From: Acaryochloris marina S15
GTDB taxonomy: Bacteria; Cyanobacteriota; Cyanobacteriia; Thermosynechococcales; Thermosynechococcaceae
Reading direction: 5' to 3'
DNA length: 32,000 nt
Assembly (NCBI RefSeq): GCF_018336915.1
Contig: NZ_CP064924.1
Location: 210,001 to 242,000, forward strand
Shown here: piece after piece, positions 5,962 to 27,624 of the stretch
How positions within the stretch are numbered: position 1 is the stretch's first letter
Layout of the letters: each line of letters starts with the position of its first letter
Made by a program: the position numbers and the translations under genes
The notes under the pieces: model-generated
The model's database searches: none
The model's input: the letters and a program-made list of their open reading frames with translations, nothing else
What the model was told of the DNA's origin: nothing

Positions 5962-6251
5962 CTTTTATCTTTCTCTTCTCTTTCTTCTGAAGAAGTAATT
6001 TCAGAATTTGCATACCATCCTTCCAAGATATGCAAGATGCAAAAAATAACTCTATCTAAATCTCTGTCCTAATGTTCGCTATGTAAGTTTTAGGAATAAA
6101 AACTTACCATCAACAAATAGCAGTGAGATATTTACCCAATAAGACTCTGAACGCATTCTTGAAACATCTCCACACTTATCCCCAGAAGCGTTCAATACAA
6201 AGTTATTCCAAGGTGAAAGTGAGGTGAAAGCCATGTAAGCCCATTAAACGT

Positions 6252-13626: not shown

Positions 13627-14936
13627 GTAGTGAGAAATTACCAAAAGGTTATAAGCAGACTGAGGTTGGGGTTATTCCAGAAGATTGGGAATTAGATACG
13701 ATTGGACAATCTATGCGTCTGATAAATGGACGAGCATTCAAACCAAGTGACTGGACAGATCAAGGTACACCAATTATCAGAATTCAAAATTTAAATGATT
13801 CAAATGCTTCCTTTAATTATTGTTCTGACGCCACATACATTGAAGATAAGCATCGACTCGAAGTAGGTGATCTTGTTTTTGCCTGGTCAGGAACCAAAGG
13901 GTCATCTTTCGGAGCAAGAATATGGCCTGGGCCATGTGGAGTATTGAATCAGCATATATTTAAGATCATTGCAAATAAGGATAAACTCACACATCAATAT
14001 GCGTTTCTGACTTTGCTAAAGGTTCAAGAAGATATTGAGAAACATGCACATGGCTTCAAAGCATCATTTGTACATGTTAAAAAGGCAGATTTAGTTGGTG
14101 TTCAATTAGCTGTTCCTCCGATAAAAGAACAAAAAGCGATCGCAACTACTCTAAGCGACACCGACGCCCTCATCGAAGCCTTAGAACAACTCATCGCCAA
14201 AAAGCGCCACATCAAACAAGGCACCATGCAGGAATTGCTGACAGGCAAGCGGCGATTACCAGGATTTGGGGAGGGGAAAGGTTATAAGCAGACTGAGATT
14301 GGGGTTATTCCTGAAGATTGGGATTTAGAAAATTTTGGCAATTTAGTCGATTACACAAAAGGATATGCTTTTAAGTCTGAAGAATATACAGATTGTGGAG
14401 TTCGAATCGTCAGAGTTAGTGATACAACTTTTGACACAATTAATAATGATAATGCTGTTTTTATAAATGCTAATTCAGTCTACGAATATAGGAAGTGGAA
14501 ATTACGAGAGTACGATCTTATTTTCTCGACAGTTGGTTCAAAACCACCGATGTACGACTCTCTAGTTGGGAAGGCAATTTTAGTTACACAGCAGCATGCT
14601 GGTAGTTTATTGAACCAGAATGCAGTGTTGATCCGGGCCAAACGATACAGTGCAGAAACTCAGTGTTTTTTGCTGAATCATTTTCGAACCGAAAGATATA
14701 TAAACTATATTGAAATAATTTTTAGAGGTAATGCTAATCAAGCTAGCATCACGCTAGAAGACTTGTTTAAGTTCAAACTACCTCTTCCCTCTTCAGAAGA
14801 ACAAGAAGCGATCGCAACCATCCTCTCCGACATGGACACCGAAATCGCCACCCTCGAAGCCAAGCTAATAAAAACCCGCCAACTCAAACAAGGCATGATG
14901 CACAACCTACTCACCGGGAGGATTCGCCTCGTATGA
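13623..14936 (+). CDS. hsdS: type I restriction-modification system, specificity subunit S (two target recognition domains, TRDs)
   Basis: A GYKQTE[VI]GVIPEDW box occurs twice. Two conserved helices are present: EQKAIATTLSDTDALIEALEQLIAKKRHIKQGTMQELLTG and EQEAIATILSDMDTEIATLEAKLIKTRQLKQGMMHNLLTG. Confidence 0.9.
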   Translation: MSSEKLPKGYKQTEVGVIPEDWELDTIGQSMRLINGRAFKPSDWTDQGTPIIRIQNLNDSNASFNYCSDATYIEDKHRLEVGDLVFAWSGTKGSSFGARIWPGPCGVLNQHIFKIIANKDKLTHQYAFLTLLKVQEDIEKHAHGFKASFVHVKKADLVGVQLAVPPIKEQKAIATTLSDTDALIEALEQLIAKKRHIKQGTMQELLTGKRRLPGFGEGKGYKQTEIGVIPEDWDLENFGNLVDYTKGYAFKSEEYTDCGVRIVRVSDTTFDTINNDNAVFINANSVYEYRKWKLREYDLIFSTVGSKPPMYDSLVGKAILVTQQHAGSLLNQNAVLIRAKRYSAETQCFLLNHFRTERYINYIEIIFRGNANQASITLEDLFKFKLPLPSSEEQEAIATILSDMDTEIATLEAKLIKTRQLKQGMMHNLLTGRIRLV

Positions 14937-17900
14937 GCATCGGCAAACCTGAACGAGTCACCCAGAATCGAGTCGTTGACCTCTTCCGCGACGAACTCAG
15001 CTACGACTACCTTGGTAATTGGGAATATCGTGAAAGCAACAGCAACATCGAAGACCCGCTACTGACCAATTACCTCAATCAAAAAGGCTATACCCCCAAG
15101 CAAATCAGCTCAGCCCTCTACATTCTGCACATAGAAGCCGATAACCCCAACCGCAGCCTCTACGACAACAACAAAGAGATCTACAGCCTGCTCCGCTATG
15201 GCGTCCAGGTCAAACCCAGTGCTAGCGAGAATACCGAAACTGTTCAACTCATCAACTGGGAGAATCCTGAGCAAAACCACTTTGCCATTGCTGAAGAAGT
15301 CACCGTCTACGGTAACAAAGAAAAACGCCCCGATATTGTCCTCTACCTCAACGGCATCGCCATCGGCGTTCTAGAACTCAAAAACAGCCGCGTCTCTATT
15401 GGTGATGGCATCCGCCAAAGCCTCACAAACCAACGTCCTGAATTCATCGGAGCCTTCTTCAGCACCGTCCAGATCATCTTCGCAGGCAACGACACCGAAG
15501 GGCTTCAATACGGTGCAATCGGTACCCCCGAGAAATACTTCCTCAAATGGAAGGAAGACGAACAAGACAACAGCCGTTACAAACTCGACAAGTACCTGCT
15601 CAAAATCTGCAACAAACAGCGCCTCCTCGACCTTATCCATAACTTTGTCCTCTTCGACGCAGGTACTAAAAAACTGCCTCGCGTTCACCAATACTTCGGC
15701 ATCAAAGCCGCCCAAGACCATGTGCGTCGTTCAGAAGGCGGCATCATCTGGCACACCCAAGGCAGTGGCAAAAGCATTACGATGGTCCTCCTCGCTAAAT
15801 GGACCCTCGCCAATAACCCCAACGCCCGTATCGTCATCGTCACCGACCGTGACGAACTTGATAAACAAATCAAAAACGTTTTCAACGATGCCGGTGAAAC
15901 CATCTCCCGTACCCGCAGCGGTAAAGACCTGATGGCCCAACTCGGCCAAGCCAAGCCTCGCCTCCTCTGCTCCCTGGTTCATAAATTCGGCAAACGCAAC
16001 GTCAAAAACTTCGATCAGTTCATCACAGATCTAGAAGCGCAACCCAGTCCCACCGTGGGCGAAGTCTTTGTCTTTGTCGATGAATGCCACCGCACCCAAA
16101 GCAAAAGGGGTAAACTCCACCGCACCATGAAAGCCCTGATGCCCGACGCCACCTTCATCGGCTTCACCGGCACCCCCCTCCTCAAAAAAGACAAAGCCAC
16201 CAGCATCGAAACCTTTGGCAGCTATATCCACACCTACAAGTTCAGCGAAGCCGTTGCTGATGAAATTGTCCTCGATCTAGTCTACGAAGCCCGTGATATC
16301 AACCAAACACTCGGTTCTGAAGATAGAGTCGATGCCTGGTTCGAAGCCAAAACCAAAGGTCTCAACGACTGGCAAAAAGCCGCTCTGCGAGAACAGTGGG
16401 GCACCATGCAAAAAGTTCTCAGCTCCCGCTCCCGCATGAATCGGGTGGTCAGTGATATCGTCTTCGACTTTGGTGTCAAACCCCGCCTCAGCAATGATCG
16501 TGGCAACGCTTTCCTCGTTGCCTCCAGCATCTACGAAGCCTGCAAGTACTACGAACTCTTCCAAAAGACCGTCTTCAAAGGCAAATGTGCCGTCGTCACC
16601 TCCTACAATCCCCAAACTAAACACATCACCACTGAAGACACCGGAGCCAACACTGAAACGGATAAAGAGTTTATCTTCAACCTCTACACCGAGCTGCTCA
16701 CCAACATCACTGCCCAACCCAATAAGACTAAAACCGAAACCTACGAAGACCAATCCAAAGAGCTTTTTAAAGACCAGCCCGCCAACATGAAGCTGCTGAT
16801 CGTCGTCGATAAACTGCTCACCGGTTTTGATGCCCCGAGCTGCACCTACCTCTACATCGACAAAAGCATGCAGGACCACGGCCTCTTCCAGGCCATCTGT
16901 CGTGTCAATCGTTTAGATGGCAATGATAAAGACTTTGGCTACATCGTCGATTACAAAGACCTGTTCCGCAAAGTTGAAAACGCCATCTCGGTCTACACCT
17001 CCGACCTCGACCACGGCGACCTCGAAGGCGGTGACTCTGAAATTCTATTGCAAGACCACCTCACCAAAGGTCGCCATCGTCTGGATGATGCCATCGAAGA
17101 GATTGTCCTTCTGTGTGAACCGGTCCAACCTCCTCGGGACGAACTCGACTATATCCACTACTTCTGTGGCAATACTGAACTCCCAGAAGACCTCAAACTT
17201 CGTGAACCCCAGCGGGTTGCTCTTTACAAAGCCACAGCCGCCCTCGTCCGAGCCTATGCCAACATCGCCGATGCCTTAGAAGCCGCAGGCTACGGCCCAG
17301 CGGACATCGCCCGCATCAAAAAACGACTCGATGACACCCTCAACCTCCGGGAAATCATCCGCAAAGCCAGCAATGAAACCATCGATCTCAAAGCCTATGA
17401 AGCGGATATGCGCCACCTGATCGACACCTACATCGAAGCCAGTGAATCCCGCAAAATCTCACCCTTCGATGAGATGCCGTTACTAGAGATTATCGCCAAA
17501 GTTGGCATCGACAAAGCCATTGATGACCTACCTCCAGGTCTGAAGCGCAATAACCAAGCCGTCGCTGAAACCATTGAGAATAACGTCCGCAGCACCATCG
17601 TCCAAGAAAGCCTCCGTGACCCTGCCTACTATGCCAAAATGTCCGCTCTCCTCGACGAGATTATTGAAGCGCGCCAACAGAAAGCGATTGAGTACGAAGA
17701 CTATTTGCAGCAGGTTGCAGAACTGGTCAAACAAGTGGATGCAGGCCAATCTGAGGATACCCCGGAGCAACTTAACACCCCCGGTCGTCGAGCACTGTAT
17801 AACCTATTAAGACAAGATGCCCTCGGCATAGGTCCAGAGAATGACTCAGATCCTTCTACCTCCACCGACCAGTCACAGGAAGCCGACCTTCTGGAATGCG

Positions 17901-18064
17901 TTACCCAAATCGATGAGACGATCAGGAGAGTGCGCCCCGACGCATGGCGAGACAACGGGGGTCCAAAAGAGCAGCAGATTAAAACCGCACTTTATGGGAT
18001 TCTTCAAGATGTTGATAAAGTTGAACAGATTTTTCTGATTATCAAGGCGCAACTAGAGTATTAG
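14933..18064 (+). CDS. hsdR: type I restriction endonuclease subunit R
   Basis: 1043 aa. The Walker A motif is HTQGSGKSITM, the DEAH-box motif DECH is at 16079-16090, and TGTPL is present. It is coupled to hsdS by a 4-nt overlap. Confidence 0.9.
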   Translation: MSIGKPERVTQNRVVDLFRDELSYDYLGNWEYRESNSNIEDPLLTNYLNQKGYTPKQISSALYILHIEADNPNRSLYDNNKEIYSLLRYGVQVKPSASENTETVQLINWENPEQNHFAIAEEVTVYGNKEKRPDIVLYLNGIAIGVLELKNSRVSIGDGIRQSLTNQRPEFIGAFFSTVQIIFAGNDTEGLQYGAIGTPEKYFLKWKEDEQDNSRYKLDKYLLKICNKQRLLDLIHNFVLFDAGTKKLPRVHQYFGIKAAQDHVRRSEGGIIWHTQGSGKSITMVLLAKWTLANNPNARIVIVTDRDELDKQIKNVFNDAGETISRTRSGKDLMAQLGQAKPRLLCSLVHKFGKRNVKNFDQFITDLEAQPSPTVGEVFVFVDECHRTQSKRGKLHRTMKALMPDATFIGFTGTPLLKKDKATSIETFGSYIHTYKFSEAVADEIVLDLVYEARDINQTLGSEDRVDAWFEAKTKGLNDWQKAALREQWGTMQKVLSSRSRMNRVVSDIVFDFGVKPRLSNDRGNAFLVASSIYEACKYYELFQKTVFKGKCAVVTSYNPQTKHITTEDTGANTETDKEFIFNLYTELLTNITAQPNKTKTETYEDQSKELFKDQPANMKLLIVVDKLLTGFDAPSCTYLYIDKSMQDHGLFQAICRVNRLDGNDKDFGYIVDYKDLFRKVENAISVYTSDLDHGDLEGGDSEILLQDHLTKGRHRLDDAIEEIVLLCEPVQPPRDELDYIHYFCGNTELPEDLKLREPQRVALYKATAALVRAYANIADALEAAGYGPADIARIKKRLDDTLNLREIIRKASNETIDLKAYEADMRHLIDTYIEASESRKISPFDEMPLLEIIAKVGIDKAIDDLPPGLKRNNQAVAETIENNVRSTIVQESLRDPAYYAKMSALLDEIIEARQQKAIEYEDYLQQVAELVKQVDAGQSEDTPEQLNTPGRRALYNLLRQDALGIGPENDSDPSTSTDQSQEADLLECVTQIDETIRRVRPDAWRDNGGPKEQQIKTALYGILQDVDKVEQIFLIIKAQLEY

Positions 18065-18079
18065 CAGGGTTTGCAGAAT

Positions 18080-18802
18080 ATGGATGAAAGACAAACCATC
18101 GAACTGGGCGATATCACCGTAGACGTCGTGAAAAAGGACATCAAGAATCTCCACCTCAGCGTCTATCCCCCCAACGGCAATGTGCGGATCTCAGCACCGC
18201 AGCGAATGGATCTAGCCACCATCCGCCTCTTTGCTGTCTCTAAACTGCGATGGATTAAACAGGAACAGCGTAAGCAACGCGCTCAAGAACGGGAAGCCCC
18301 CCGCGAATACCTCAACCGGGAAAGTCACTATCTGTGGGGCAAACGCTATCTCCTAGACGTAGTGGAGAAGGATGCTCCCCCTAACCTCAATCACAACCAT
18401 AGCCAAATGACCCTGCAAGTCCGCCCAGGGGCCGATGCCGCTAAGAAGCGTGCCATCATTGATGAGTCCTATCGTCAGCAACTCAAGTCAGCCATCCCTC
18501 CCTTGATCGCTAAATGGGAACAGCTTATGGGGGTGACAGTGGCTGACTTCACCGTCAGGAAGATGAAAACTAAATGGGGAAGCTGTAGTCCAGAGTCAAG
18601 AACGATTCGGTTCAATCTAGACTTAGCGAAGAAGCCCCCTGCTTTTCTTGAATATGTGGTTGTTCATGAGATGGTTCACTTGTTAGAGCCAACCCATAAC
18701 TCCCATTTCATCGCATTGATGGATAAATTCATGCCCAAATGGAAGTTTTATAGAGACGTCCTGAACCGTCTGCCCCTCTCTTATAAACGTTGGGACAAGT
18801 AG
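18080..18802 (+). CDS. M48/YgjP-like (DUF45, COG1451) zinc metallopeptidase
   Basis: HEMVH (HExxH) is at 18666-18680, within WGSCS...IRFN...VVVHEMVHLLEPTHNSHF. The start is either the ATG at 18080 or the TTG at 18071. It begins 7-16 nt after the hsdR stop. Confidence 0.8.
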   Translation: MDERQTIELGDITVDVVKKDIKNLHLSVYPPNGNVRISAPQRMDLATIRLFAVSKLRWIKQEQRKQRAQEREAPREYLNRESHYLWGKRYLLDVVEKDAPPNLNHNHSQMTLQVRPGADAAKKRAIIDESYRQQLKSAIPPLIAKWEQLMGVTVADFTVRKMKTKWGSCSPESRTIRFNLDLAKKPPAFLEYVVVHEMVHLLEPTHNSHFIALMDKFMPKWKFYRDVLNRLPLSYKRWDK

Positions 18803-19024
18803 ATGATTTTAAGATGATAATATCTCGATAAACAGATAAAAGTAATTTAGATAGTGAAGTTATAAAGAAGAAAATCTAAGTTTAAAAAGAACAAATAAAT
18901 AGTAAATACTTTCAAGACTGATTTTCTAGAAAACTATATCTGTAGTTCAAATCTCTATTTTTGCGTGGGCACACTATAAATAGAATTCAATATTGACACG
19001 ATTAAATCTTTTGGAAGAGTAAAT

Positions 19025-19489
19025 ATGTCCCCACATAGCGGAAACCTATCTATTGGTGACTGGGTTGTTCTGACTAAGAAGGGTGCTAAAGCACACCGTG
19101 AGCATCATCAGAACATGTCGCTTACAACCGGTGCCTTAACTGGTGCTGTTATGCTTCCACTAGCTTTGCCTGGAGGATTTCTTGCTACTATTGGCATTGT
19201 CGGTGGCGGTGCTGGTATAGCAGTTGCTGGAACAACTCAGGCTGCGGTAGGAGCAGCAGGTGGAGCAGGAGTTCTATCACATATCAAACGCTATTTGGAG
19301 AATCATCCTGAAGCCCAAGCCATCGGGGTAATCAAAGACAAGCAAAGACGTTGGTTTGGACAAGACGGTCACGATTATGAAGTTGTATGGTCGAATGAAG
19401 AGCCTCTTGGTAAAAGTAGCTGGCACCTCAGCAAACATTTATTAAAAATTGATCCACCTTCAGGACCATCAGAAATACCTATCACCTAA
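19025..19489 (+). CDS. hypothetical membrane protein with Gly/Ala-rich hydrophobic core
   Basis: 154 aa. GALTGAVMLPLALPGGFLATIGIVGGGAGIAVAGTTQAAVGAAGGAG is followed by a soluble tail. The gene is preceded by a 220-bp AT-rich spacer. No family recognised. Confidence 0.5.
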   Translation: MSPHSGNLSIGDWVVLTKKGAKAHREHHQNMSLTTGALTGAVMLPLALPGGFLATIGIVGGGAGIAVAGTTQAAVGAAGGAGVLSHIKRYLENHPEAQAIGVIKDKQRRWFGQDGHDYEVVWSNEEPLGKSSWHLSKHLLKIDPPSGPSEIPIT

Positions 19490-19695
19490 CAGAATTGTGA
19501 AAAACTGATCTCTCTTGAATATATATCTCTGTCAGCAGAATTCGGCTGGGTTAGCTCATTAACCCGGAAAACAGACGGAAGTAGATCGGTCTGGTCATGC
19601 AATCTAAACACTGAGATCTCCAAGGATGGTGTCTGGAGAGACAGTGTTGCTAGGGGTTAGCCTGAACCTGTAGTGGATTTGGGGGCAGGGAAAAT

Positions 19696-19715
19696 CCTGT
19701 TAGCTGTCTAACAGG
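19696..19715 (-). terminator. short perfect hairpin downstream of the 126-aa gene
   Basis: cctgttag-ctgt-ctaacagg, a perfect 8-bp stem. On the minus strand it is followed by atttt, which is a weak T tract. Confidence 0.3.
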
Positions 19716-19765
19716 GATATAGGCAAATTGTAGGGGCAAGCCAAAATTTTAACTTCAAAGCTGAG

Positions 19766-20146
19766 TTATCGAGCCTGTTCCTGCTGCTGTTGCCTGAACG
19801 CTTGCTGGAACTTAGCAAGAACTTCAGAGCCAAGCCGTTCTTTGTAAACTGAAATTTCAGGATACGAACCCTCATGGAAGGACATGATTTTTTCACAGGC
19901 CCCGCTTGAGTCAGTACGGATAAAAACCGTTCCTTTAGGGTTTGGCTGAGGTCTTTTGTATGTCTCTCTTATTTCGTGGTATTGACTCCCCTCATGCTCC
20001 ACAGTCATTGCAACCACAGCGCTTTCTGGGCGTGCCTCTGGCCTTTCGATGAGTGAGTTATAGCACTCGTTAACGGCGGGATTTGCCTTAGCGGGCATAG
20101 CCGGGACTATGCTCATTAAAATTAGTAACGGTAAAAGTTTCTTCAT
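19766..20146 (-). CDS. small secreted protein (signal peptide), hypothetical
   Basis: MKKLLPLLILMSIVPAMPAKA is a signal peptide. A strong AAGGAG lies 8 nt upstream of the ATG, immediately after the stop of the hydrolase gene. Confidence 0.6.
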   Translation of the reverse strand: MKKLLPLLILMSIVPAMPAKANPAVNECYNSLIERPEARPESAVVAMTVEHEGSQYHEIRETYKRPQPNPKGTVFIRTDSSGACEKIMSFHEGSYPEISVYKERLGSEVLAKFQQAFRQQQQEQAR

Positions 20147-20163
20147 GGTTTTTGTCTCCTTTT

Positions 20164-23100
20164 TTATTGTGGTGTGTTAAAAGTCCCTACAGGGGGCAGA
20201 TTGAAATGTTTACGGGGATCTACCTCTACTCCCGAGTTGCGATCGCCAGTAACGTAGCCTTCGATTACGCCTAAATCAATGTGAGGCCCTGTTGATCCTC
20301 CTGTTGATCCAACTTCCCCGATTGGTTGGCCGGGATCTACAGTATCCCCCGCTTTTACGTAATTAACTTTGTTGTGGCCATACCAGGTAGCCAAGCCGTT
20401 CCCGTGGTCAATCAGGATCCAGTTTCCATAAAGGCCGTTCCATTTACTCTCGACAACTACCCCGCCATCCGCAGCGACAAAAGGTGTCCCCTCATAATGG
20501 GCAAGGTCGATTCCATGATGGAAGCTTTGCCTTCCTGTGGTTGGGCTAATTCTTGGGCCGTAATTACTTGTCAGCTTGTAATCGTACTTAGCCAAGGGAT
20601 CGGAAAGCCTACCTGACGCAACCCCCGAACCCTGTACAAAATTACTATTGTCAATGTTGCTCTGACCAGGGCCATTACTAGGTCTACAAGGCAACCTCCT
20701 AGACGCCACACCAACAGGCTCATTCGTTGAAGCATCCCCAGTCGGACCATATTTCTCAAAATTCGCTGGATTGCTCCAAACTGCACTTTGTTGAGGACCA
20801 CCCGGCAGCGAAGGCCACTGTAGTGGCCTCAACACCCGATCCGCCAGGGCAAAATCCCCTCTCTGAATCGCGGCCATCAGATCCACATTCTTCTCAGCAC
20901 CAATAATCTTGATCCACTCCACCGCTGCTTGAGCCGCAACCGCTCGGTCTCGTGTCCAGCCATCTATTCCTGTTCGTTGCAGAAGACTAGTTCTAGACTC
21001 TGGAGTGAACTGGTAAATACCGTAAGCGCCTGTCTCAGAATTGGGCTTCCAATTGGTCCCGTCAGTGCTTTCGCCTATTCTGATTCGGGCGAGATACTGC
21101 CTGAGATTATGGTCAGGATCAGCAGGGGTTGAGGTTGTGCTTCCCTGGCGACTCACTGAACCTGGTCTACCCGGAATACCCTGCAATTGCGGCGCACCTG
21201 ACGCTCCATCAATCGGTTGAAGGACGCCATTAGATGACGCAGTAGTACCTTTATTCTGACTCCCAGCCGCATTCGCAAAGGTCTGTTGCGCCTGACTTGT
21301 CCCCACAAACCGCCAGTGCCAAGGCTCAAATATAACGCCTTGGCTATTCCCCTGGGGAAATGACAACTCAAACCCGTACTTCCCGGCATTGGCTTGCATC
21401 CAGGCATATTCAGGTGTCTGTGCCCAAGACTCATTCAGGCTGGCATTCTGGTTGTTGCCTACATCCACCGCTAGACCCGTGTGGTGCTCACTATATCCAG
21501 GTGGAGCAACTGACTTGGCAACTTCTTCAGCAGATTGGTTCGCCAACTTTCTATCCCAATTAGCCTGCTGATGAGACACGGATCGGAAGCCTGATACTGC
21601 TTTAATATCCAACCCTTGAGCCGCTGCATCTGCTCTCAGTTGCTCAAAGGCTTGGGCTGCATCTGGGGCTAGGGTTTCCTGTACTCCATCGACGGAGATC
21701 ACGTTGACCAATTGACCCGTGTTTTCTGCATAGGCTAAGTGACCATATTTTGAATTCGATGGAGAGACATCACTCTGGCCCGACGCGGCAATAAGCTGAT
21801 TGGGGTCACAGTACACCTGACTGAGGCCCGCTGCCGTCAACGCCCGGTCTCTGAACTTGGCAATCTCAGCAGGCAGACTTCTTCGACTCGCCACTAGGAA
21901 CAAGCCCCCTTCCCGGACGGTGAACGGTGTGGGGATCACAATGAAGTGGGGGGTACACTGCTCTCCCAGAATCGGGATGGAGTAGCAGAACTGGATGGCA
22001 AGATGCAGCCTCGCCGTGCTGGGCTTATCAGGATATTCTTTAATATTCTTCAACACAAACTTAGTATTGGAGCCTGTACCAAAGGGATGGATGCCTGCAG
22101 GTTCCCAACCCCCATTCACCCACTTCATGAGTCCCTTACCACCCTTCACGCCTTGACCGTTCTTGCCCTTGGAGTGCCCCTGTACCCATTGCTTACCTTC
22201 AATATCATCATCCCCCGTTACTTGGGCGAGAGGAGAGCTAATAAACTTCCGCATCTCAAAGTGAGGACAGTTGTCTGCTCTCTGGTTTTTGGTTTTGCCA
22301 AGGGTGCATTTAATCGGTCTAAACTTCTGGTCTTCACTGCCACCCGATAAGGCATGTTGAACGGATGGCTCCTCTGGTCCTTCTACGCCACTGTAGGCGA
22401 TATCAAATCGGGCAAATAAGTCCCCAGCAAGGAAGCTAAAGGCCAAGCCAAAGGGCAGCTTATTGACTGGAATCTCAGACAGACCCGGAACAGAGTTGAT
22501 CAGTTCATCCTCTACCCCAGGTATTTCCTCAATCGCCAAGTCAGCAATCTTGGGTAGGGTCTGCTCAATGGGCTGATTGACGAGATCGGGAACCGCGCCC
22601 AAGGGTAAATCTTTCAGCTCTGGGACAGCCTTGATCACTTCCTTGACAGCAATATTCGTCCCCTTTGCCAGAATGTAGGCTTGCGCCCGCTTCCTCACCT
22701 GTTGCCAGTTGCCATTAATGACATCACCGACGAGAGGGACAATCTGATTGACGGGCAGCTTCTTGAGCGTTGGGCCAATCTTCTTACCAATGCCCGCTAA
22801 CTCAATCTGCTCAGCCTTAGAAATTACCCCCTGCCAGTTCCCCCGCGTTAGGTCTTGGAGAGGAATGCCTTTGAGAGCGGGAATCTTACTGAGCTTAGTA
22901 ATCAAAACTTTCTGGCCCGTGGACAGTGCCGCTTGCTGAAGGTGCTTCCCCGCTTGAGACGGGTCATGCAACACTCCTAATGCTGCTTGAATGGCAGGGG
23001 CGGCATCATCAACGGTGACTTTCTCGCCATTGTTGAGCTTGGTGTAGAGGTTATCGACTTCATCAACCGTCAGGCCATAAACGAGGGGCACATCTCCAAT

Positions 23101-23493
23101 GGGCACCCCAGCGATATTTGTCCCTTGCTGAGCGGAAATATCTCTCAAGGTGAGCTTGGTAAACCCAGCCGTGACAGGGTTCTGCTGCAAGTCTCCAAAT
23201 TTGAGGATTTGGTCAGGAGTTGCCCCCTGGGGCCATGCCCGATCAATCTGGTAGGGAAGCTGCACCCCATTGGGTAAGGGTGGGATTTCAACATACCCTG
23301 CCTGCTCTGCACTCGTGAGCTGCTGGAATGTCGGGGAAGGGCCAGGGTCTGGGTCATAGTAGAGGCCCGGTAAGTTGACTGGAGTATCCGGGCTGAGTGC
23401 AGCCGTCTGTTGCTGTTGCTGAGCAAGGACAGGGGCTATCTGCGTTAAGGAGGGCAGGCTAGCCAGGAAAAATGCAAGTAGTTTCTGTTTCAT
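20164..23493 (-). CDS. secreted multidomain peptidoglycan hydrolase: unknown N-terminal half + VanY/M15 D,D-carboxypeptidase + SLT-like lytic transglycosylase + M23 endopeptidase
   Basis: Signal peptide MKQKLLAFFLASLPSLTQIAPVLA. VanY block (about 21300-21640): SGFRS...PPGYSEHHTGLAVDV...FEPWHWRF. SLT-like block (about 20840-21108): IGESTDG...GAYGIYQF. M23 block (about 20167-20590): FHHGIDL...GNWILIDHGNGLATWYGH...GSTGGSTGPH. Confidence 0.85.
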   Translation of the reverse strand: MKQKLLAFFLASLPSLTQIAPVLAQQQQQTAALSPDTPVNLPGLYYDPDPGPSPTFQQLTSAEQAGYVEIPPLPNGVQLPYQIDRAWPQGATPDQILKFGDLQQNPVTAGFTKLTLRDISAQQGTNIAGVPIGDVPLVYGLTVDEVDNLYTKLNNGEKVTVDDAAPAIQAALGVLHDPSQAGKHLQQAALSTGQKVLITKLSKIPALKGIPLQDLTRGNWQGVISKAEQIELAGIGKKIGPTLKKLPVNQIVPLVGDVINGNWQQVRKRAQAYILAKGTNIAVKEVIKAVPELKDLPLGAVPDLVNQPIEQTLPKIADLAIEEIPGVEDELINSVPGLSEIPVNKLPFGLAFSFLAGDLFARFDIAYSGVEGPEEPSVQHALSGGSEDQKFRPIKCTLGKTKNQRADNCPHFEMRKFISSPLAQVTGDDDIEGKQWVQGHSKGKNGQGVKGGKGLMKWVNGGWEPAGIHPFGTGSNTKFVLKNIKEYPDKPSTARLHLAIQFCYSIPILGEQCTPHFIVIPTPFTVREGGLFLVASRRSLPAEIAKFRDRALTAAGLSQVYCDPNQLIAASGQSDVSPSNSKYGHLAYAENTGQLVNVISVDGVQETLAPDAAQAFEQLRADAAAQGLDIKAVSGFRSVSHQQANWDRKLANQSAEEVAKSVAPPGYSEHHTGLAVDVGNNQNASLNESWAQTPEYAWMQANAGKYGFELSFPQGNSQGVIFEPWHWRFVGTSQAQQTFANAAGSQNKGTTASSNGVLQPIDGASGAPQLQGIPGRPGSVSRQGSTTSTPADPDHNLRQYLARIRIGESTDGTNWKPNSETGAYGIYQFTPESRTSLLQRTGIDGWTRDRAVAAQAAVEWIKIIGAEKNVDLMAAIQRGDFALADRVLRPLQWPSLPGGPQQSAVWSNPANFEKYGPTGDASTNEPVGVASRRLPCRPSNGPGQSNIDNSNFVQGSGVASGRLSDPLAKYDYKLTSNYGPRISPTTGRQSFHHGIDLAHYEGTPFVAADGGVVVESKWNGLYGNWILIDHGNGLATWYGHNKVNYVKAGDTVDPGQPIGEVGSTGGSTGPHIDLGVIEGYVTGDRNSGVEVDPRKHFNLPPVGTFNTPQ

Positions 23494-23533
23494 AAGGGAA
23501 GGCTTTGATGCGATATAAGAATGTACCGCTAAG

Positions 23534-23616
23534 GAAAAACGGCCCCGATTGGAGCCGCTTTTTGAAGAACTAAATTGGGAAATTGAAGGCGATTTACTTA
23601 AGGGGAAAAATCTAGG
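23534..23616 (+). repeat. direct repeat copy A (pairs with 26009-26091)
   Basis: By hand, an ungapped alignment at a constant offset of 2475 nt gives roughly 75-80% identity over 83 bp: gaaaaacggcccc...tggagccgct...taaattgg...gcgatttactt...aaaat.c.agg. Weaker similarity continues to about 23680. Confidence 0.7.
23535..23563. terminator. bidirectional intrinsic-terminator-like hairpin inside repeat A
   Basis: aaaaa-cggcccc-gatt-ggagccg-cttttt. The stem is 7 bp with one C/A mismatch, flanked by A5 and T5. Confidence 0.5.
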
Positions 23617-23769
23617 GAATCATCACCCGGCAGCGCAAGGTGAGTAAGCAGAGGCACCGATCGAGTTGGCCGATCCATTGAGTGTATAGGTCAGAAGTTT
23701 TCGTGTGCTGACTCTCTCAAGTTACGATGCTGTGAGAAGTGGCCGTTTAAAGCATTATCGGGGTGTGGG

Positions 23770-25995
23770 GTGATTGCTGGATTGAATGACTGGAATACAA
23801 TGTCTTGGTTGTGGTTGCTAGCTGATACCGCAGCTAAAAAAGCAGATGACTCTAAAACCAAGCAAATTCTAGATTTCCTCAACAATATTCCGATGATTGG
23901 ATGGGGGATTGCAGGGTTTGCTGTAATAGCCCTAGCGACAGCAGCGATCGCTAAGTGGACAGGCAACCTAGATAAAATCATCGTCTTTGGTCAAAAGTAC
24001 TTCTCTCGCAAGAAACCAGAGATCACAGAAGCACAACGACTAAAAGCACGGCAAGATCTGATTGAAATCTTGCTCAAGCAGGTTGTAAAACGCTTGGAAG
24101 ACTCCCTACATCACAAGATTCGGATTGATTTGATGGGGGAGGTGCAAAGACAAAGGATTGGAAAGGGTAATTTACAACCTGATCAAGAAAAAGAAACCGA
24201 CAAATCTCCTGATAATTTCATCAACCGCACACTCAATCTTTTTAAGAAAACCACTCCACCCAAACCTGTTAGTGATCACACCTCAACGCTAGAACTCTTT
24301 GAAGAGGAAGATATTCAGGGGCGTTTATTGATTTTAGGTGAACCCGGTTCTGGCAAGACAAATGAGCTGCTAGTACTAGCTAAAGATCTACTTACTCAAG
24401 CAAAGCATTCCCCAGAAAAGCCAATTCCAGTGATTTTTGAACTATCTGAGTGGAATGCAGAACTGGAGTTTGCTGATTGGCTTAGTCAGCAACTGCTTAA
24501 AAAGTACAGCATTCCTTTGGTTATCTCAAAGCACTGGATCGAACACAAGCAGTTGCTTCCTCTTCTGGATGGCTTAGACGAATTGAGAAGAGTGGATAAA
24601 GACGATGAAGTCACATCAGAAGATCTAGATAAACGCCGAATAGCACAACAGATTCAATGTGTACGAAAAATCAATGCTTTTCTAGATAATTTCTCTTTAC
24701 CCCTTATTGTGTGTTGTCGGCGTAAGGAATATGAAGCTCTCGAAGCACAAAATGAATATCTAAAGCGCTTAAATGGAGCGATTTACCTACAAGCACTTGA
24801 AGATAAGCAGATCCAAGAATATCTTCAGAGATTAGACCGAGCCTCATTATGGGATGCACTTCAAAGTCAGCCTGAACTCCTGGAATTAGCTCATTCACCA
24901 TTATTTTTGATTATTTTGGTGGTTGCATATCAGGGGAAAAACATTCATAGCTCAGAAGATTTGCTTGATGAATATATCCATAAGCAAGTTCATGATCTAA
25001 ACAATCAAGGAGCATACCCTCCAGGGAAAGAACCTACACCAGAGGAAACACATTATTACCTGAGTTGGTTAGCGACCAAACTAGATTTTGAGGAAACAAC
25101 AGAATTTCTAATCGAGCAACTGCAACCTTCATGGGTTGATATCCCCAAAGCTCGTAAACAGTATCGCTTGATGGTCGGGCTGAGTTTCGGGCTGAGTGTC
25201 GGGCTGAGTGTCGGGCTGATTGTCGGGCTGAGTGTCGGGCTGATTTTCGGGCTGATTTTCGGGCTGATTTTCGGGCTGATTGGAGGGCTGATTTTCGGGC
25301 TGAGTGGAGGGCTGAGTGGGGAACTGAGTGGTATAAAAACAAAAGAGAAGCTAAGCTTCTCTTGGAGTAGTTCCTTTCGTGGGCTGAGTGTCGGGCTGAT
25401 TTTCGGGCTGATTGGAGGGCTGATTTTCGGGCTGATTGGAGGGCTGATTTTCGGGCTGAGTGGAGGGCTGATTTTCGGGCTGATTTTCGGGCTGAGTGTC
25501 GGGCTGAGTGTCGGGCTGATTGGAGGAATAAAAACTTCTGAAATTGATGTTCGAGATAAAATAAATCCTAATCAAGGAATTAAAGACTCTCTCAAAAATG
25601 GGCTGATTGGAGGGCTGAGTGTCGGGCTAATTTTCGGGCTGAGTGTCGGGCTGATTTTCGGGCTGATTTTCGGGCTGAGTGTCGGGCTGAGTGTCGGGCT
25701 GATTGGAGGGCTGAGTTTCGGGCTGATTGGAGGGCTGATTGGAGGGCTGAGTGTCGGGCTGAGTTTCGGGTTGATTGTCGGGCTGATTGGAGGGCTGATT
25801 GGAGGGCTGAAAACGGTTTTACAACACATTTCCTTGCGTATAGTCCTCTACCAATCAGGAGTAGCCCCCTGGAACTACGCAAGGTTCCTCGAACATGCAG
25901 AAAACCATCGGTTCATTCAGCGAACTGGTGGGCGTTACCGTTTTGTCCATGACCTGCTTCGCAAACGTTTCGCTGCAACTTTGAAAGAGAGTTAG
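23770..25995 (+). CDS. NACHT/STAND P-loop NTPase with an N-terminal TM helix and a C-terminal array of GxxxG tetrapeptide repeats
   Basis: 741 aa with a GTG start. The Walker A motif GEPGSGKT is at 24337-24360 and the Walker B motif is LLPLLDGLDEL. The C-terminal tail FLEHAENHRFIQRTGGRYRFVHDLLRKRFA is typical of cyanobacterial NACHT proteins. The three hydrophobic repeat arrays are listed separately. Confidence 0.8.
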   Translation: MIAGLNDWNTMSWLWLLADTAAKKADDSKTKQILDFLNNIPMIGWGIAGFAVIALATAAIAKWTGNLDKIIVFGQKYFSRKKPEITEAQRLKARQDLIEILLKQVVKRLEDSLHHKIRIDLMGEVQRQRIGKGNLQPDQEKETDKSPDNFINRTLNLFKKTTPPKPVSDHTSTLELFEEEDIQGRLLILGEPGSGKTNELLVLAKDLLTQAKHSPEKPIPVIFELSEWNAELEFADWLSQQLLKKYSIPLVISKHWIEHKQLLPLLDGLDELRRVDKDDEVTSEDLDKRRIAQQIQCVRKINAFLDNFSLPLIVCCRRKEYEALEAQNEYLKRLNGAIYLQALEDKQIQEYLQRLDRASLWDALQSQPELLELAHSPLFLIILVVAYQGKNIHSSEDLLDEYIHKQVHDLNNQGAYPPGKEPTPEETHYYLSWLATKLDFEETTEFLIEQLQPSWVDIPKARKQYRLMVGLSFGLSVGLSVGLIVGLSVGLIFGLIFGLIFGLIGGLIFGLSGGLSGELSGIKTKEKLSFSWSSSFRGLSVGLIFGLIGGLIFGLIGGLIFGLSGGLIFGLIFGLSVGLSVGLIGGIKTSEIDVRDKINPNQGIKDSLKNGLIGGLSVGLIFGLSVGLIFGLIFGLSVGLSVGLIGGLSFGLIGGLIGGLSVGLSFGLIVGLIGGLIGGLKTVLQHISLRIVLYQSGVAPWNYARFLEHAENHRFIQRTGGRYRFVHDLLRKRFAATLKES
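25177..25332 (+). repeat. tandem 12-nt coding repeat, array 1 (13 units: GLSF GLSV GLSV GLIV GLSV GLIF x3 GLIG GLIF GLSG GLSG ELSG)
   Basis: I counted the units gggctga[gt]t[gt][gt][ac] directly. Many neighbouring units are identical, for example gggctgattttc three times at 25237-25272. Confidence 0.95.
25381..25524 (+). repeat. tandem 12-nt coding repeat, array 2 (12 units)
   Basis: GLSV GLIF GLIG GLIF GLIG GLIF GLSG GLIF GLIF GLSV GLSV GLIG. A 16-codon polar spacer (IKTKEKLSFSWSSSFR) separates it from array 1. Confidence 0.95.
25600..25803 (+). repeat. tandem 12-nt coding repeat, array 3 (17 units)
   Basis: GLIG GLSV GLIF GLSV GLIF GLIF GLSV GLSV GLIG GLSF GLIG GLIG GLSV GLSF GLIV GLIG GLIG, followed by GLKT. 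It is preceded by the polar spacer IKTSEIDVRDKINPNQGIKDSLKN. Confidence 0.95.
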
Positions 25996-26008
25996 AATCA
26001 CTATCTAC

Positions 26009-26091
26009 GAAAAACGGCCCCTGGTGGAGCCGCTATCTGACGAATTAAATTGGCAACCTGGAAGCGATTTACTTCAGGAGCAAAATCCAGG
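26009..26091 (+). repeat. direct repeat copy B (pairs with 23534-23616)
   Basis: See copy A. Copy B overlaps the 3' end of the 36-codon micro-ORF and the terminator of the T4SS-like operon. Confidence 0.7.
26010..26032 (-). terminator. intrinsic-terminator-like hairpin ending the minus-strand T4SS-like operon (inside repeat B)
   Basis: aaaaa-cggcccc-tggt-ggagccg. On the minus strand the hairpin is followed by ttttt. On the plus strand, downstream of the NACHT gene, it is followed only by ctatct. Confidence 0.5.
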
Positions 26092-26179
26092 CGATAACCC
26101 CCAAAATCCAACCGATGGGGCCTGCAAGGAATAGGAAGGGCGTTAAGACGATCAGAACGATGACGAGACAACCTTTCAT
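26069..26179 (-). CDS. unannotated 36-aa hydrophobic micro-protein, translationally coupled to the VirB10-like gene
   Basis: This ORF is below the track cut-off. The ATG shares one base with the upstream TAA (TAATG). Its translation is MKGCLVIVLIVLTPFLFLAGPIGWILGVIAWILLLK. It ends just before the terminator hairpin. Confidence 0.4.
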   Translation of the reverse strand: MKGCLVIVLIVLTPFLFLAGPIGWILGVIAWILLLK

Positions 26180-27624
26180 TACACGCCCTCCATGAAATAG
26201 ATTTCAACTTCCTTGTTGAAGTGATAGAGGCCATTCCGAGAACCACTGGAGGAACGGCTAGGGGCTAGACTATTGACGACAGACGAGGCTCTATCTCCCA
26301 CACTGCTGGAGCGGAGCTGGTCAATCCCCACATTCAGGCCCGCCCTGAGTAGTTTGTTACCAAAGCCTTCACCCTGACCTTTGAGCTTGGCTTGCAGATG
26401 TGGAGACTGCTTGTACTGAATGACAGCAACAGGGGTCTTCCTGGACTCTGGTGACTCACCCGTTAGATCCATATGCTCAATGGGCTGTTGGTTGACTTCC
26501 ACGACTTGCATACTCAAAAAGTCACCCTCGGCACTAGTCACTTCAGCAATGACCTTGGAACCTTTCTTCGCCATTGTCCCTAAGTCTTCACTGAGGGTTA
26601 ATAGATACCGCTGACCGATGATCGCGTCACTGTTCTGGGGTATCCAGGTAATGGGATTGTCCAGCTTCGCCTTAGCCGTGGTGCCAGCAGCAATCAATCC
26701 TTTACCCAATGGGTTACTGGTTGCTGGGTATAGGGCCGTGGGTGAATCCGTGACGACTTGGTTATCCTCCAGCAAGTCACCCGTGAGGGAAGCGACCAGA
26801 ACGCCTTGGGGTGGGGCTGGTGGGGTTTGAGCAATGGGTTTCGTGGTTATCGGTTTACGGACGGGGTGAGAGGTGGAAACCTTGATGGGACGAATGGGTT
26901 TAGGTTGGACGGGCTTAGGGGCAAAAGCCGATTGTTTGCTGAGGCTGAAGTTACTAGCAGGCTGGGGGGCAGCTTGAGCAACGGGCTGAGGTTGTGGTCT
27001 AGGTGCTGGAGGTCTAGCCGCAACCACGGGTTGAGTCTTGGGTGCGGGTCTGTCCCTGTAGACGATTCGGGGCTTGGGCTGGGTCCGAGGAACGGCGCTT
27101 TGATAGCGAATCGGTCGGGTCACTCGATGGGTCGGACTGGGAGGTCTCCCTTGAGGCTTGGGAGTCGGGGGAACGGCTGCGGGCTTTGGCCCCGCCTTCT
27201 GAGCAGGAGAAACGGGCTGACCGTCCAAGGACTGCCGCAATGCCGCGAGTTCCACCTTCAGATCCGCATTCTCTTGGGTGAGTACTTCTTCTTGACTCTG
27301 GGCTACCGTAGAACCCGTCTCTTCACTTTGGGGGTTTGACTCAGCCTGTTGAGGGGCGCTCCCATACAGCATCCCCGTGGCGAGTAAGGCAAAGGGTGTC
27401 CCCACGACGGTGAGGAGCAAAAGCTGAAACCACAGCCGCTTATACAGCTTGTTCTTGGGGACGGTGGTCTTTGTCTCTGGCATCGCTAGGTTAGCGAGGG
27501 ATACCGCTGGTGTACGGGTCTCTTTAGGATCATCCTGCTTCGCGTTAGATGTTCCCTCGGATGGGGCGGGTTTGCGCTTGAGCAGTACATCTCTAGCATG
27601 TTTGGCTTTTTGGGTCGTGTTCAT
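26179..27624 (-). CDS. VirB10/TrbI-like bitopic protein (architecture-based call)
   Basis: The architecture is a basic N-terminus, one TM helix (LWFQLLLLTVVGTPFALLATGMLYG), a coiled coil, a Pro-rich region of about 130 aa (PKPAAVPPTPKPQGRPPSP...) and a C-terminal globular domain of about 190 aa. Its ATG overlaps the upstream stop (ATGA). Confidence 0.5.
   Translation of the reverse strand: MNTTQKAKHARDVLLKRKPAPSEGTSNAKQDDPKETRTPAVSLANLAMPETKTTVPKNKLYKRLWFQLLLLTVVGTPFALLATGMLYGSAPQQAESNPQSEETGSTVAQSQEEVLTQENADLKVELAALRQSLDGQPVSPAQKAGPKPAAVPPTPKPQGRPPSPTHRVTRPIRYQSAVPRTQPKPRIVYRDRPAPKTQPVVAARPPAPRPQPQPVAQAAPQPASNFSLSKQSAFAPKPVQPKPIRPIKVSTSHPVRKPITTKPIAQTPPAPPQGVLVASLTGDLLEDNQVVTDSPTALYPATSNPLGKGLIAAGTTAKAKLDNPITWIPQNSDAIIGQRYLLTLSEDLGTMAKKGSKVIAEVTSAEGDFLSMQVVEVNQQPIEHMDLTGESPESRKTPVAVIQYKQSPHLQAKLKGQGEGFGNKLLRAGLNVGIDQLRSSSVGDRASSVVNSLAPSRSSSGSRNGLYHFNKEVEIYFMEGV

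Follow-up and report, generated by a model that had tools for sequence, protein, structure and literature searches.

Integrative elements that insert at the 3′ end of a gene leave a replacement 3′ end and a displaced relic, which is their classic pattern. In the described cases, where tRNA, tmRNA or protein genes serve as targets, the target is intact on one side of the insert, a partial 3′ copy lies on the other side, and the direct repeats are tens of bases long. A second group of related systems comprises the indel or 'allelic' cassettes of defence islands and hotspots on plasmids and chromosomes, exchanged through homologous recombination of their conserved flanks; a variable gene occupies a fixed junction of conserved genes, filled, empty and alternative states occur, and the flanks are mosaic. 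Target-site duplications made by transposition measure 2–14 bp.

Here, we analysed a NACHT gene which is bracketed by direct repeats in an Acaryochloris plasmid; by the window we mean the whole stretch of DNA that was analysed (32 kb). The locus resembles the integrative elements in the intact target end, the partial 3′ copy and the length of the repeats. However, no integrase or excisionase was found, the insert consists of one gene of 2.2 kb, identity between the repeats is just 78%, the relic copy decays, and the NACHT family occurs elsewhere without such ends. With the indel cassettes the locus shares the fixed junction, the range of states (NACHT, nothing, or pentapeptide-repeat genes) and the mosaic flanks, but its filled state adds a 94-nt duplication of the operon end, which would record the first insertion, and just one other type of cargo is seen. 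We consider the two repeats to be the scar of one old insertion or illegitimate recombination, with a probability of roughly 0.6. The reading that the NACHT gene was inserted is supported, while that of a dedicated site for swapping cargo is not. The features of the locus are as follows.

20164–23493, minus strand: peptidoglycan hydrolase of 1109 aa, VanY plus peptidase M23 (Pfam)
23510–23529, minus strand: 'pre' motif between hairpin A and the hydrolase start codon, recognised by conservation; it reads GCGGTACATTCTTATATCGC
23534–23627, minus strand: repeat copy A, the relic (repeat search, blastn, folding, alignment)
23628–23769, plus strand: NACHT upstream region, with homology only among T4SS-linked NACHT loci
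23770–25995, plus strand: NACHT-type STAND NTPase of 741 aa (Pfam, homologues, Walker A)
26009–26102, minus strand: repeat copy B, the working copy (repeat search, folding, alignment)
26069–26179, minus strand: hydrophobic micro-ORF of 36 aa (ORF list), with the sequence MKGCLVIVLIVLTPFLFLAGPIGWILGVIAWILLLK
26179–27624, minus strand: proline-rich protein of 481 aa, VirB10-like according to the first-pass annotation (synteny)

The repeat pair and its anatomy

The first-pass annotation described direct repeats of ~83 bp with 75–80% identity and a weaker similarity over a further 60–90 bp. The repeats proved real. A repeat search of the window aligned copies A and B without gaps over 94 nt at 78% identity (73/94), and blastn with the copy A region as query and the whole window as subject returned an 83-nt core (23534–23616 vs 26009–26091) at 80.7% identity, again without gaps, with an E-value of 1.8e-17. 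The local-alignment score of A against B was 52, compared with 8.8 ± 1.4 for shuffled sequences (0 of 500 reached it); chance similarity is ruled out by these two results. The longest perfect block shared by A and B is ~15 nt. There are only two copies of the repeat within the window, where two of its sub-motifs occur exactly twice each against 0 expected by chance. The weaker outer similarity, on the other hand, is absent: to the right of 23627 and to the left of 23534 the local-alignment scores were no better than those of shuffles, and the diagonal identity outside 23534–23627 was only 20–50%. A flanking duplication of 94 nt is a trace that is also expected from an attL/attR pair or from Campbell-type integration.

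The repeat unit corresponds to the 3′ end of the minus-strand operon and comprises the last ~10 codons of the micro-ORF, a spacer of ~37 nt and a terminator hairpin. Copy B, with its hairpin at 26015–26032 and U-run, spacer, and intact last micro-ORF codons and stop, overlaps the end of the 36-aa ORF, which bears out its earlier assignment as the 3′ end of the operon. Copy A consists of a hairpin (23540–23557) with a U-run, the ~37-nt spacer, a relic stop codon at 23594–23596 and ~10 decayed codons of the micro-ORF 3′ end, which reach 23627. This remnant (ATT CCC TAG ATT TTT CCC CTT AAG TAA vs ATT GCC TGG ATT TTG CTC CTG AAG TAA) is still legible in other plasmids, as VVIAWILLLK-stop in pMB05 and AWILILK-stop in L016. 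The 26-aa ORF at 23598–23678, earlier taken for the remnant, translates as stated, but only its last ~30 nt are derived from the micro-ORF, and the true remnant lies in a different frame.

On the minus strand, both hairpins fold into a stem of 9–12 bp followed by U5, at −18.3 kcal/mol (z −2.7) for hairpin A and −19.7 kcal/mol for hairpin B. Folding thus gives a GC-rich stem-loop with a U-run on the transcribed strand at the operon end, i.e., a putative intrinsic terminator. Rho-independent terminators have the same build (GC-rich stem of 8–12 bp, 4-nt loop, U5–U10 tail on the operon strand); the differences are that copy A has no upstream gene to terminate here, and that, read on the plus strand, the hairpin contains a C-A mismatch and its tail is weak. 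The hairpin of copy A had also been described as carrying T5 on the plus side; the hairpin folds as described, but the T5 is specific to the window and is not kept in other copy A sequences. Among 13 related hairpin sequences 96% of the stem cells are paired; the stem sequence is kept and the loop varies, and no compensatory double changes in the stem were found across the alignment. A terminator and promoter scanner listed neither hairpin and no sigma-70-like promoter, and Rfam gave no family match in 23300–26400. The terminator and promoter roles that we assign to the hairpin and the motifs are predictions from sequence.

The NACHT gene and its neighbours

As had been noted, the NACHT gene is the sole gene between the copies and is oriented opposite to its neighbours, being the only ORF there and lying on the plus strand among minus-strand genes. 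Its product scored 26.1 bits against the Pfam NACHT model (PF05729; E 8.7e-6), just below the cut-off of 26.7. It has 2120 homologues, mostly with PF05729, the close ones being named NACHT domain-containing, and the Walker A motif GEPGSGKT is legible at 24337–24360. The C-terminal part is made of 12-nt tandem repeats (about 25160–25810), and the protein ends in hydrophobic repeats of four residues (mainly GLSV, GLIF and GLIG), which form an unusual array. NCBIfam held no informative family for this protein, PADLOC gave no meaningful defence match (best mad8 with E 0.0036 and PDC-M54A with E 0.0064, with partial coverage of the NTPase region), and a literature search on NACHT genes of Acaryochloris plasmids returned nothing relevant. 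The NACHT P-loop and the single-gene organisation are shared with the bNACHT and Avs-type antiphage STAND NTPases, from which the protein differs in its sub-cut-off Pfam score, the lack of a PADLOC model and the GLSV/GLIF/GLIG-type C-terminus; a defence role is putative. The window also holds a type I restriction-modification system (10193–18064).

The region upstream of the NACHT gene (23628–23769) is homologous in pMB05 and pREB1, and ~90 nt of it are gone in L016 and L017. It contains a conserved TACGAT (23723–23728), which may be a −10-like element. NACHT genes in other contexts do not share this region, and their homology starts only at 23750.

In uninterrupted loci the hydrolase gene (Pfam VanY 5e-41, Peptidase_M23 5.5e-27) comes immediately after the micro-ORF and terminator, and it adjoins the micro-ORF in L001, L003, L019, L020 and L022. 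The 'pre' motif accompanies every copy A and the closer empty sites, where it precedes the downstream gene, and it is present neither in copy B nor in the empty site L021; within it, TACATT (23520–23525) is a candidate −10 box of the hydrolase promoter. The micro-ORF is the last gene of its operon, and at least 10 Acaryochloris loci encode the same conserved protein. The VirB10-like gene precedes it in the same operon and is syntenic in all related loci. Its 481-aa product had no match in Pfam, NCBIfam or PADLOC, and neither did the 238-, 491-, 399- and 402-aa products of the operon in Pfam or NCBIfam. Genes for T4SS coupling proteins (PF02534, PF10412, PF12696) lie downstream in the syntenic loci L017, L019 and L020, and MOB-suite types pREB1 and pREB3 as MPF_T / MOBF. 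The operon would be of the T4SS/conjugation type, an assignment made by the context of related loci and not by HMM matches. In profile searches of genome contigs the VirB10-like protein alone found no match, and the VirB10-like alignment found only pREB1 and pREB3, both already known; the pattern of the micro-ORF end gave 0 matches in metagenome contigs.

Empty, filled and alternative loci

Related plasmids contain the empty site that the first-pass annotation had proposed to look for. The uninterrupted order of VirB10-like gene, micro-ORF, hairpin and hydrolase, with a single repeat copy and lacking the NACHT gene, was found in six loci: pMB01, pREB3, CCMEE 5410 and the more distant L020, L021 and L022. 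The flanks of pMB01 match the window at 93–97% identity. L020, L021 and L022, of lineages with a VirB10-like identity of 58–64%, have the same 36-aa micro-ORF, a 28–32-nt spacer, the hairpin and the hydrolase, which is the predicted pre-insertion layout. In pMB01, pREB3 and CCMEE 5410 the spacer is different and longer, and the micro-ORF is extended by 6–10 codons; thus, the closest empty sites are not a direct pre-insertion or excision state. The homology of the window to pMB01/pREB3 breaks off at 23566/23559, just past hairpin A, and picks up again at the micro-ORF stop (26073/26072). The long spacers of the empty sites do not resemble the filled loci in any part. The proposal that an insertion split a once-contiguous order therefore fits, the empty and filled loci being as predicted, but the duplication amounts to 94 nt, not up to 170. 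A search for the same repeats around other cargo gave none: the junction of pMB03 does hold another cargo, two pentapeptide-repeat genes, which no repeats bracket.

The NACHT gene is present in five loci, i.e., the window, pREB1, pMB05, L016 and NIES-2412 (L017). Both repeat copies are present in the first four, and in NIES-2412 copy A is visible and the contig ends inside the NACHT gene. Since all five have identical junctions and a homologous NACHT upstream region, they point to one event. The two copies have fared differently, with A-A identities between plasmids of 56–66% vs 73–87% for B-B (87% for copy B of the window vs pMB05). pREB1 no longer has hairpin A, pMB05 and L016 have strong but unrelated hairpins in its place, and NIES-2412 has lost the micro-ORF relic together with ~90 nt. 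Judged from these alignments, copy A evolves as a relic in free decay, unlike copy B.

The flanks common to the window and the empty pMB01 are 91–100% identical up to the junction. As A and B are only 78% identical, the duplication must be old and not a fresh insertion in this plasmid, and the present/absent difference seen today most likely goes back to homologous exchange among sister plasmids. Within the NACHT gene, the identity between the window and pMB05 rises abruptly from 78% to 94%, and the left flank is ~92% identical to pMB01 near the junction and 99% further off; the region is mosaic. Over their first 38 nt, the A and B copies of pREB1 reach 87% identity. Among sites compared between the window and pREB1, 5 pair A with B inside a plasmid and 2 pair A with A, and such mixed patterns, few as the sites are, need gene conversion or repeated events.

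Origin of the repeats and significance of the junction

The ancestral locus carried, on the minus strand, the VirB10-like gene, the 36-aa micro-ORF, a spacer of ~30 nt, the intrinsic terminator hairpin, the promoter-like motif and the hydrolase. A 2.4-kb segment (~140 nt of upstream DNA plus the NACHT gene) then became fixed in the opposite orientation between terminator and hydrolase. The event left a second copy of the operon's final 94 nt, which consist of 34 nt from the end of the micro-ORF (stop included), the spacer, and the hairpin through the U-run. Either an unequal or illegitimate crossover of two paralogous loci on co-resident plasmids, which needs one non-homologous joint at 23627/23628, or the repair of two breaks 94 nt apart could have produced this duplication, and one of these two routes is the most likely source of the duplication. 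Copy B is presumably kept under selection, because completion of the micro-ORF and termination of the operon depend on it, and the convergent NACHT transcript probably terminates there as well. Copy A would be a pseudogenised fragment of which the hairpin and the adjoining promoter-like motif alone tend to survive, likely because their position just ahead of the hydrolase would protect this gene from transcription that runs antisense through the NACHT gene. Filled and empty versions may later have been swapped between paralogous plasmids by homologous recombination in the hydrolase and VirB10-like genes, in line with the inter-plasmid recombination documented for Acaryochloris (PMC3156569), and gene-conversion patches between A and B probably arose as well.

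It is possible, though unlikely, that a RecA crossover between A and B excises the NACHT gene with one repeat as a circle, which re-integrates Campbell-style in a paralogous T4SS operon. Such traffic would account for the patchy occurrence of NACHT among otherwise close plasmids (window vs pMB01, pREB1 vs pREB3), for the single copy of pMB01, which resembles an A-left/B-right hybrid (loop GATT as in A, then TATCTGA as in B), for plasmid-specific bases common to A and B within pREB1, and for loop variants that are not sorted by A or B. Moreover, Acaryochloris carries many recA copies and inter-plasmid recombination is frequent in it (PMC3156569). However, an excision product should retain the short spacer and the 36-aa micro-ORF, which the close empty sites do not, the 78% identity with perfect blocks this short makes a poor RecA substrate, and the copy A of pREB1 and that of NIES-2412 are degraded or truncated. 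The single upstream region and junction set of all filled loci fits one event followed by flank exchange. We find it unlikely as well as speculative that the 94-nt repeat is a portable homology patch, i.e., a RecA-driven cassette system specific to multi-plasmid Acaryochloris genomes, in which the NACHT circle would need no dedicated recombinase to re-enter any of the cell's paralogous conjugation operons at their terminator regions.

That the sampled plasmids started from the filled arrangement, and that the empty sites arose later by deletion, seems quite unlikely. In favour of this reading, both states occur in close and distant lineages, so several state changes are needed under any scenario, and the extended micro-ORF of pMB01, pREB3 and CCMEE 5410 is derived, 36 aa being the common form. 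Nevertheless, copy A, as a truncated pseudo-copy of this kind of operon end, itself requires an earlier uninterrupted state, the three distant lineages show a clean single-copy layout, and the empty-site spacers resemble nothing in the filled loci and hence are not simple deletion products.

We hold it highly improbable that the repeats are attL/attR of a site-specific integration (integron attC-like, tyrosine or serine type) with a recombinase encoded elsewhere, even though the arrangement of replacement end and displaced relic is the one established for integrative elements and a hairpin sits within the repeat. Pfam detected no transposase, integrase or other recombinase among the window ORFs scanned, namely the genes that flank the repeats and the ten largest of the remaining ORFs, and none lies between the repeats; a trans-acting enzyme might be encoded elsewhere in the genome. 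Across 72,556 plasmids (PLSDB) there are no dispersed copies; the repeat occurs at 1–2 places per record, always at the T4SS junction, and NACHT homologues elsewhere (L013, L014, L015, L018) have only the coding sequence in common and no flanking repeat. Copy A decays freely, and the hairpin has the plain form of an intrinsic terminator, also in loci that never carried the insert. An integron attC site was rejected, with no recombinase in the scanned ORFs and the repeat absent with other cassettes. The earlier alternative of a recombination site for swapping cargo is not supported by the same homologues and ORF scan or by the unbracketed cargo of pMB03. Finally, direct repeats that bracket a single gene might suggest a transposon or IS target-site duplication, dispersed repeat/MITE copies or chance similarity, but these can practically be dismissed, as 94 nt at 78% identity is far above the 2–14 bp of transposition, no transposase and no inverted repeats at the insert ends were found, the two window copies recur across plasmids only at this junction, and the alignment statistics exclude chance. 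We infer that neither transposition nor site-specific integration gave rise to the repeats.

No new type of mobile element or mechanism is revealed here, and the locus is a well-documented but fairly ordinary rearrangement scar. As the scar of one old insertion, it provides a clean, datable case of a single STAND/NACHT gene lodging in a plasmid conjugation locus. Neither neighbouring transcription unit was destroyed, because the 3′ end of the operon was duplicated, which left a terminator and promoter context on both sides. The junction of micro-ORF and hydrolase varies among Acaryochloris plasmids, being empty or occupied by a NACHT gene or by pentapeptide-repeat genes, and is thus useful for tracing plasmid mosaicism or for seeking accessory and defence genes in Acaryochloris genomes.

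The repeat pair and its surroundings

The NACHT gene lies between a hydrolase gene and the end of an operon, in a region made up as follows.

Genes of the region (window positions)
20164-23493, minus strand: VanY + M23 peptidoglycan hydrolase gene
23770-25995, plus strand: NACHT-type NTPase gene (PF05729, 26.1 bits, cut-off 26.7; Walker A GEPGSGKT)
26069-26179, minus strand: 36-aa hydrophobic micro-ORF
26179-27624, minus strand: gene for a 481-aa proline-rich protein without HMM match, called VirB10-like in the first-pass annotation

A repeat search of 23000-26700 returned one long family of two copies, 23534-23627 (copy A, by the hydrolase gene) and 26009-26102 (copy B, at the operon end), which align ungapped over 94 nt at 78% identity (73/94 by direct count). 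When 23480-23800 was compared with the whole window by blastn, the sole non-self match joined 23534-23616 to 26009-26091 (83 nt, 80.7%, E 1.8e-17), all remaining matches having E >0.3. The A/B local-alignment score was 52, versus 8.8 +/- 1.4 in 500 shuffles, and each of two sub-motifs of the repeat has exactly two occurrences in the 32 kb (0 expected). Thus, the direct repeats of ~83 bp that the first-pass annotation had placed around the NACHT gene are borne out. The weaker similarity it described for a further 60-90 bp is absent, as alignment scores right of 23627 and left of 23534 are at shuffle level; its duplication of 80-170 bp stands as a duplication, with a length of 94 nt and not the upper part of that range. 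A search for further copies, which it had also proposed, gave these two only in the 32-kb window, and in PLSDB the hairpin and spacer were found at this junction alone, with no dispersed repeat family.

On the minus strand, the repeat unit takes in the final ~10 codons of the micro-ORF with its stop, then a spacer of ~37 nt and the stem-loop GCGGCUCC-loop-GGGGCCGU with a U5 tail; the left edge of the repeat falls where this U-run ends. The stem-loop folds well here; its plus-strand version contains a C-A mismatch and folds poorly. As all of these elements are present in copy B, it is the predicted intact 3' end of the operon, as had been proposed. Copy A, 40 nt upstream of the hydrolase start, holds a decayed in-frame relic of the micro-ORF (ATT CCC TAG ATT TTT CCC CTT AAG TAA). 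Its derivation from the micro-ORF is confirmed by the readings at the same place in plasmid pMB05 (VVIAWILLLK*) and Logan contig L016 (AWILILK*); the 26-aa ORF previously quoted as the remnant is mostly a chance reading frame.

The micro-ORF itself (MKGCL...AWILLLK) is conserved in many Acaryochloris plasmids, with matches near position 6000-6110 in the related loci L005-L008 and L010. Intact unannotated copies are found in the ParM/partition regions of pREB2, pMB04 and pREC1, at a place without a VirB10-like gene beside them, and in pREB7 (L009) there is a match at the DNA level from which no intact ORF was recovered. An 18-nt direct repeat (17/18 identity, 23213-23230 and 25855-25872), TCAGGAGT[T/A]GCCCCCTGG, has one copy in the hydrolase and the other in the NACHT coding sequence, in unrelated reading frames; it is probably due to chance, though slightly longer than expected.

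Empty and filled forms of the junction

By megablast against PLSDB, the window is Acaryochloris plasmid DNA with no identical record there. An empty site, which the first-pass annotation had suggested looking for, was found in six uninterrupted loci: pMB01 (strain Moss Beach), whose flanks are 93-97% identical to the window, pREB3 (MBIC11017), a CCMEE 5410 contig (L019), and the more distant L020, L021 and L022, with a VirB10-like protein about 59-64% identical. Homology of the window with pMB01 and pREB3 ends at 23566/23559, just past hairpin A, and restarts at 26073/26072, which is the micro-ORF stop. In pMB01, pREB3 and CCMEE 5410 the spacer is different and longer (63-102 nt) and the micro-ORF is extended by 6-10 codons, reading DSG(KNSG)NDQ. 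In the three distant loci the micro-ORF is of the common 36-aa form, and a 28-32-nt spacer and a single hairpin separate it from the hydrolase gene; this layout, judged from these sequences, is that expected before insertion.

The NACHT gene fills the junction in five loci, namely the window, pREB1, pMB05, L016 and a contig of A. marina NIES-2412 (L017) that ends inside the gene. All five have the same junctions and a homologous NACHT upstream region; pMB05 has a different left-hand gene and retains copy A and the 'pre' motif (described below). With six uninterrupted and five filled loci, the earlier proposal that a once-contiguous VirB10-like, micro-ORF, terminator and hydrolase arrangement was split by the NACHT gene is supported. 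The comparison shows this gene inside a formerly contiguous junction of a predicted terminator and a predicted promoter, between 94-nt operon-end duplicates.

The same repeats were not found around other cargo. The space between micro-ORF and hydrolase in pMB03 is taken up by two pentapeptide-repeat genes, oriented like the operon and free of bracketing repeats (L005 4609-5937), which shows that the junction accepts other cargo without a flanking duplication. In pREB4 the micro-ORF/hydrolase junction holds a small ORF.

Beyond the hydrolase in L017, L019 and L020, at least one small gene precedes a gene for a T4SS coupling protein (PF02534, PF10412, PF12696). At this place in the window (19000-20164) the hydrolase is followed only by a 126-aa gene (19766-20146) and then by an oppositely oriented restriction-modification island, and the conjugation locus appears, from this gene order, to be truncated. 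The island comprises a type I system (hsdM 10193-12589, hsdS 13623-14936, hsdR 14933-18064) that is interrupted between hsdM and hsdS by a YhcG/DUF1016 PD-(D/E)XK nuclease gene (12586-13626); after hsdR comes a gene for a YgjP-like metallopeptidase (18071-18802). A 1167-aa ORF adjoining it (6468-9971) had no Pfam or PADLOC match. The close relative pMB01 is typed as non-mobilizable, and the annotation splits its VirB10-like gene into two overlapping ORFs.

Unequal fates of copies A and B

Over the 94-nt region, copy B of the window is 87% identical to that of pMB05 and 73% to that of pREB1, the corresponding values for copy A being 66% and 56%. In pREB1 the copy A hairpin is gone, in pMB05 and L016 perfect, unrelated hairpins stand in its place, and in NIES-2412 the micro-ORF relic and about 90 nt are deleted; such loss, replacement and deletion are further signs of copy A decay. 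The comparison shows one apparently functional and one decaying operon-end copy. The pMB05 hairpin (L004 2149-2176) is a perfect 12-bp palindrome, GACAGCGGCTCC-AGCA-GGAGCCGCTGTC, with the right arm retained and a new, exactly complementary left arm, and L016 has a different perfect hairpin, CCCCGGTTTTGAAAACCGGGG, at the same position (716-738). It seems that a hairpin upstream of the downstream gene is wanted whatever its sequence. Among 13 hairpins, 96% of stem cells are paired and loops vary freely; since no compensatory double changes occur in these stems, the structure is backed by conservation only.

Between hairpin A and the hydrolase start codon lies the 'pre' motif (23510-23529, minus strand, GCGGTACATTC); all A copies and the closer empty sites have it, and L021 and copy B do not. 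We infer that it is a putative -10 region of the hydrolase promoter. Hairpin A and this motif may have been retained as the immediate upstream context of that promoter.

Origin and spread of the arrangement

Pfam, applied to the flanking genes and the ten largest other ORFs of the window, gave no transposase or integrase, the repeat search gave no inverted terminal repeats, and Rfam gave no family match in the region. NACHT homologues elsewhere (L013, L014, L018 and L015, which is pREB4) have only the coding sequence in common (23750-25996), with no flanking repeats. Neighbour-joining placed the T4SS-linked NACHT genes in one group together with L013, so the bare gene moved at least once without repeats.

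Three blocks of 12-nt tandem repeats, GGGCTGAGTGTC, GGGCTGATTTTC and GGGCTGATTGGA (25160-25810), encode the C-terminal third of the NACHT protein. They specify hydrophobic units of four residues by the dozen, mostly GLSV, GLIF and GLIG, and these units resemble glycine-zipper or membrane segments. This architecture is also present in homologues from other contexts (L013, L014, L015).

Between the window and the empty pMB01, identity is 91-100% all the way to both junctions, against a 22% difference between A and B; the duplication is therefore much older than the split of these two plasmids. The best explanation for their difference in NACHT presence is that homologous recombination in the flanks exchanged one old allele for the other. 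Within the repeat array of the NACHT gene, identity to pMB05 rises abruptly from 78% to 94%, which looks like a recombination breakpoint, and the left flank is about 92% identical to pMB01 in the 1.2 kb next to the junction and 99% farther out. Most recent Acaryochloris duplicates are reported to arise via inter-plasmid recombination, and these genomes to have many recA copies (PMC3156569). All of this agrees with flank-mediated allele replacement.

Informative sites are few in number, and their grouping is mixed. Some unite copies A across plasmids (for example TGTAG in pREB1 and pMB05, TTTTGA(A/T)GAA in the window and NIES-2412), and others join A to B inside one plasmid, as do the first 38 nt in pREB1 (87%). 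We read this mixture as a probable single origin followed by gene-conversion patches, a reading that leaves room for repeated events. The main rival, excision and re-integration through the repeats without a recombinase (the first-pass annotation had offered a cargo-swapping site as its alternative), is less likely, since none of the close empty sites is an A/B hybrid and since copy A decays.

That the arrangement is an ordinary rearrangement scar is well supported. In the founding event, paralogous loci may have recombined illegitimately or unequally, or staggered breaks may have been repaired; later spread would have proceeded by homologous exchange.
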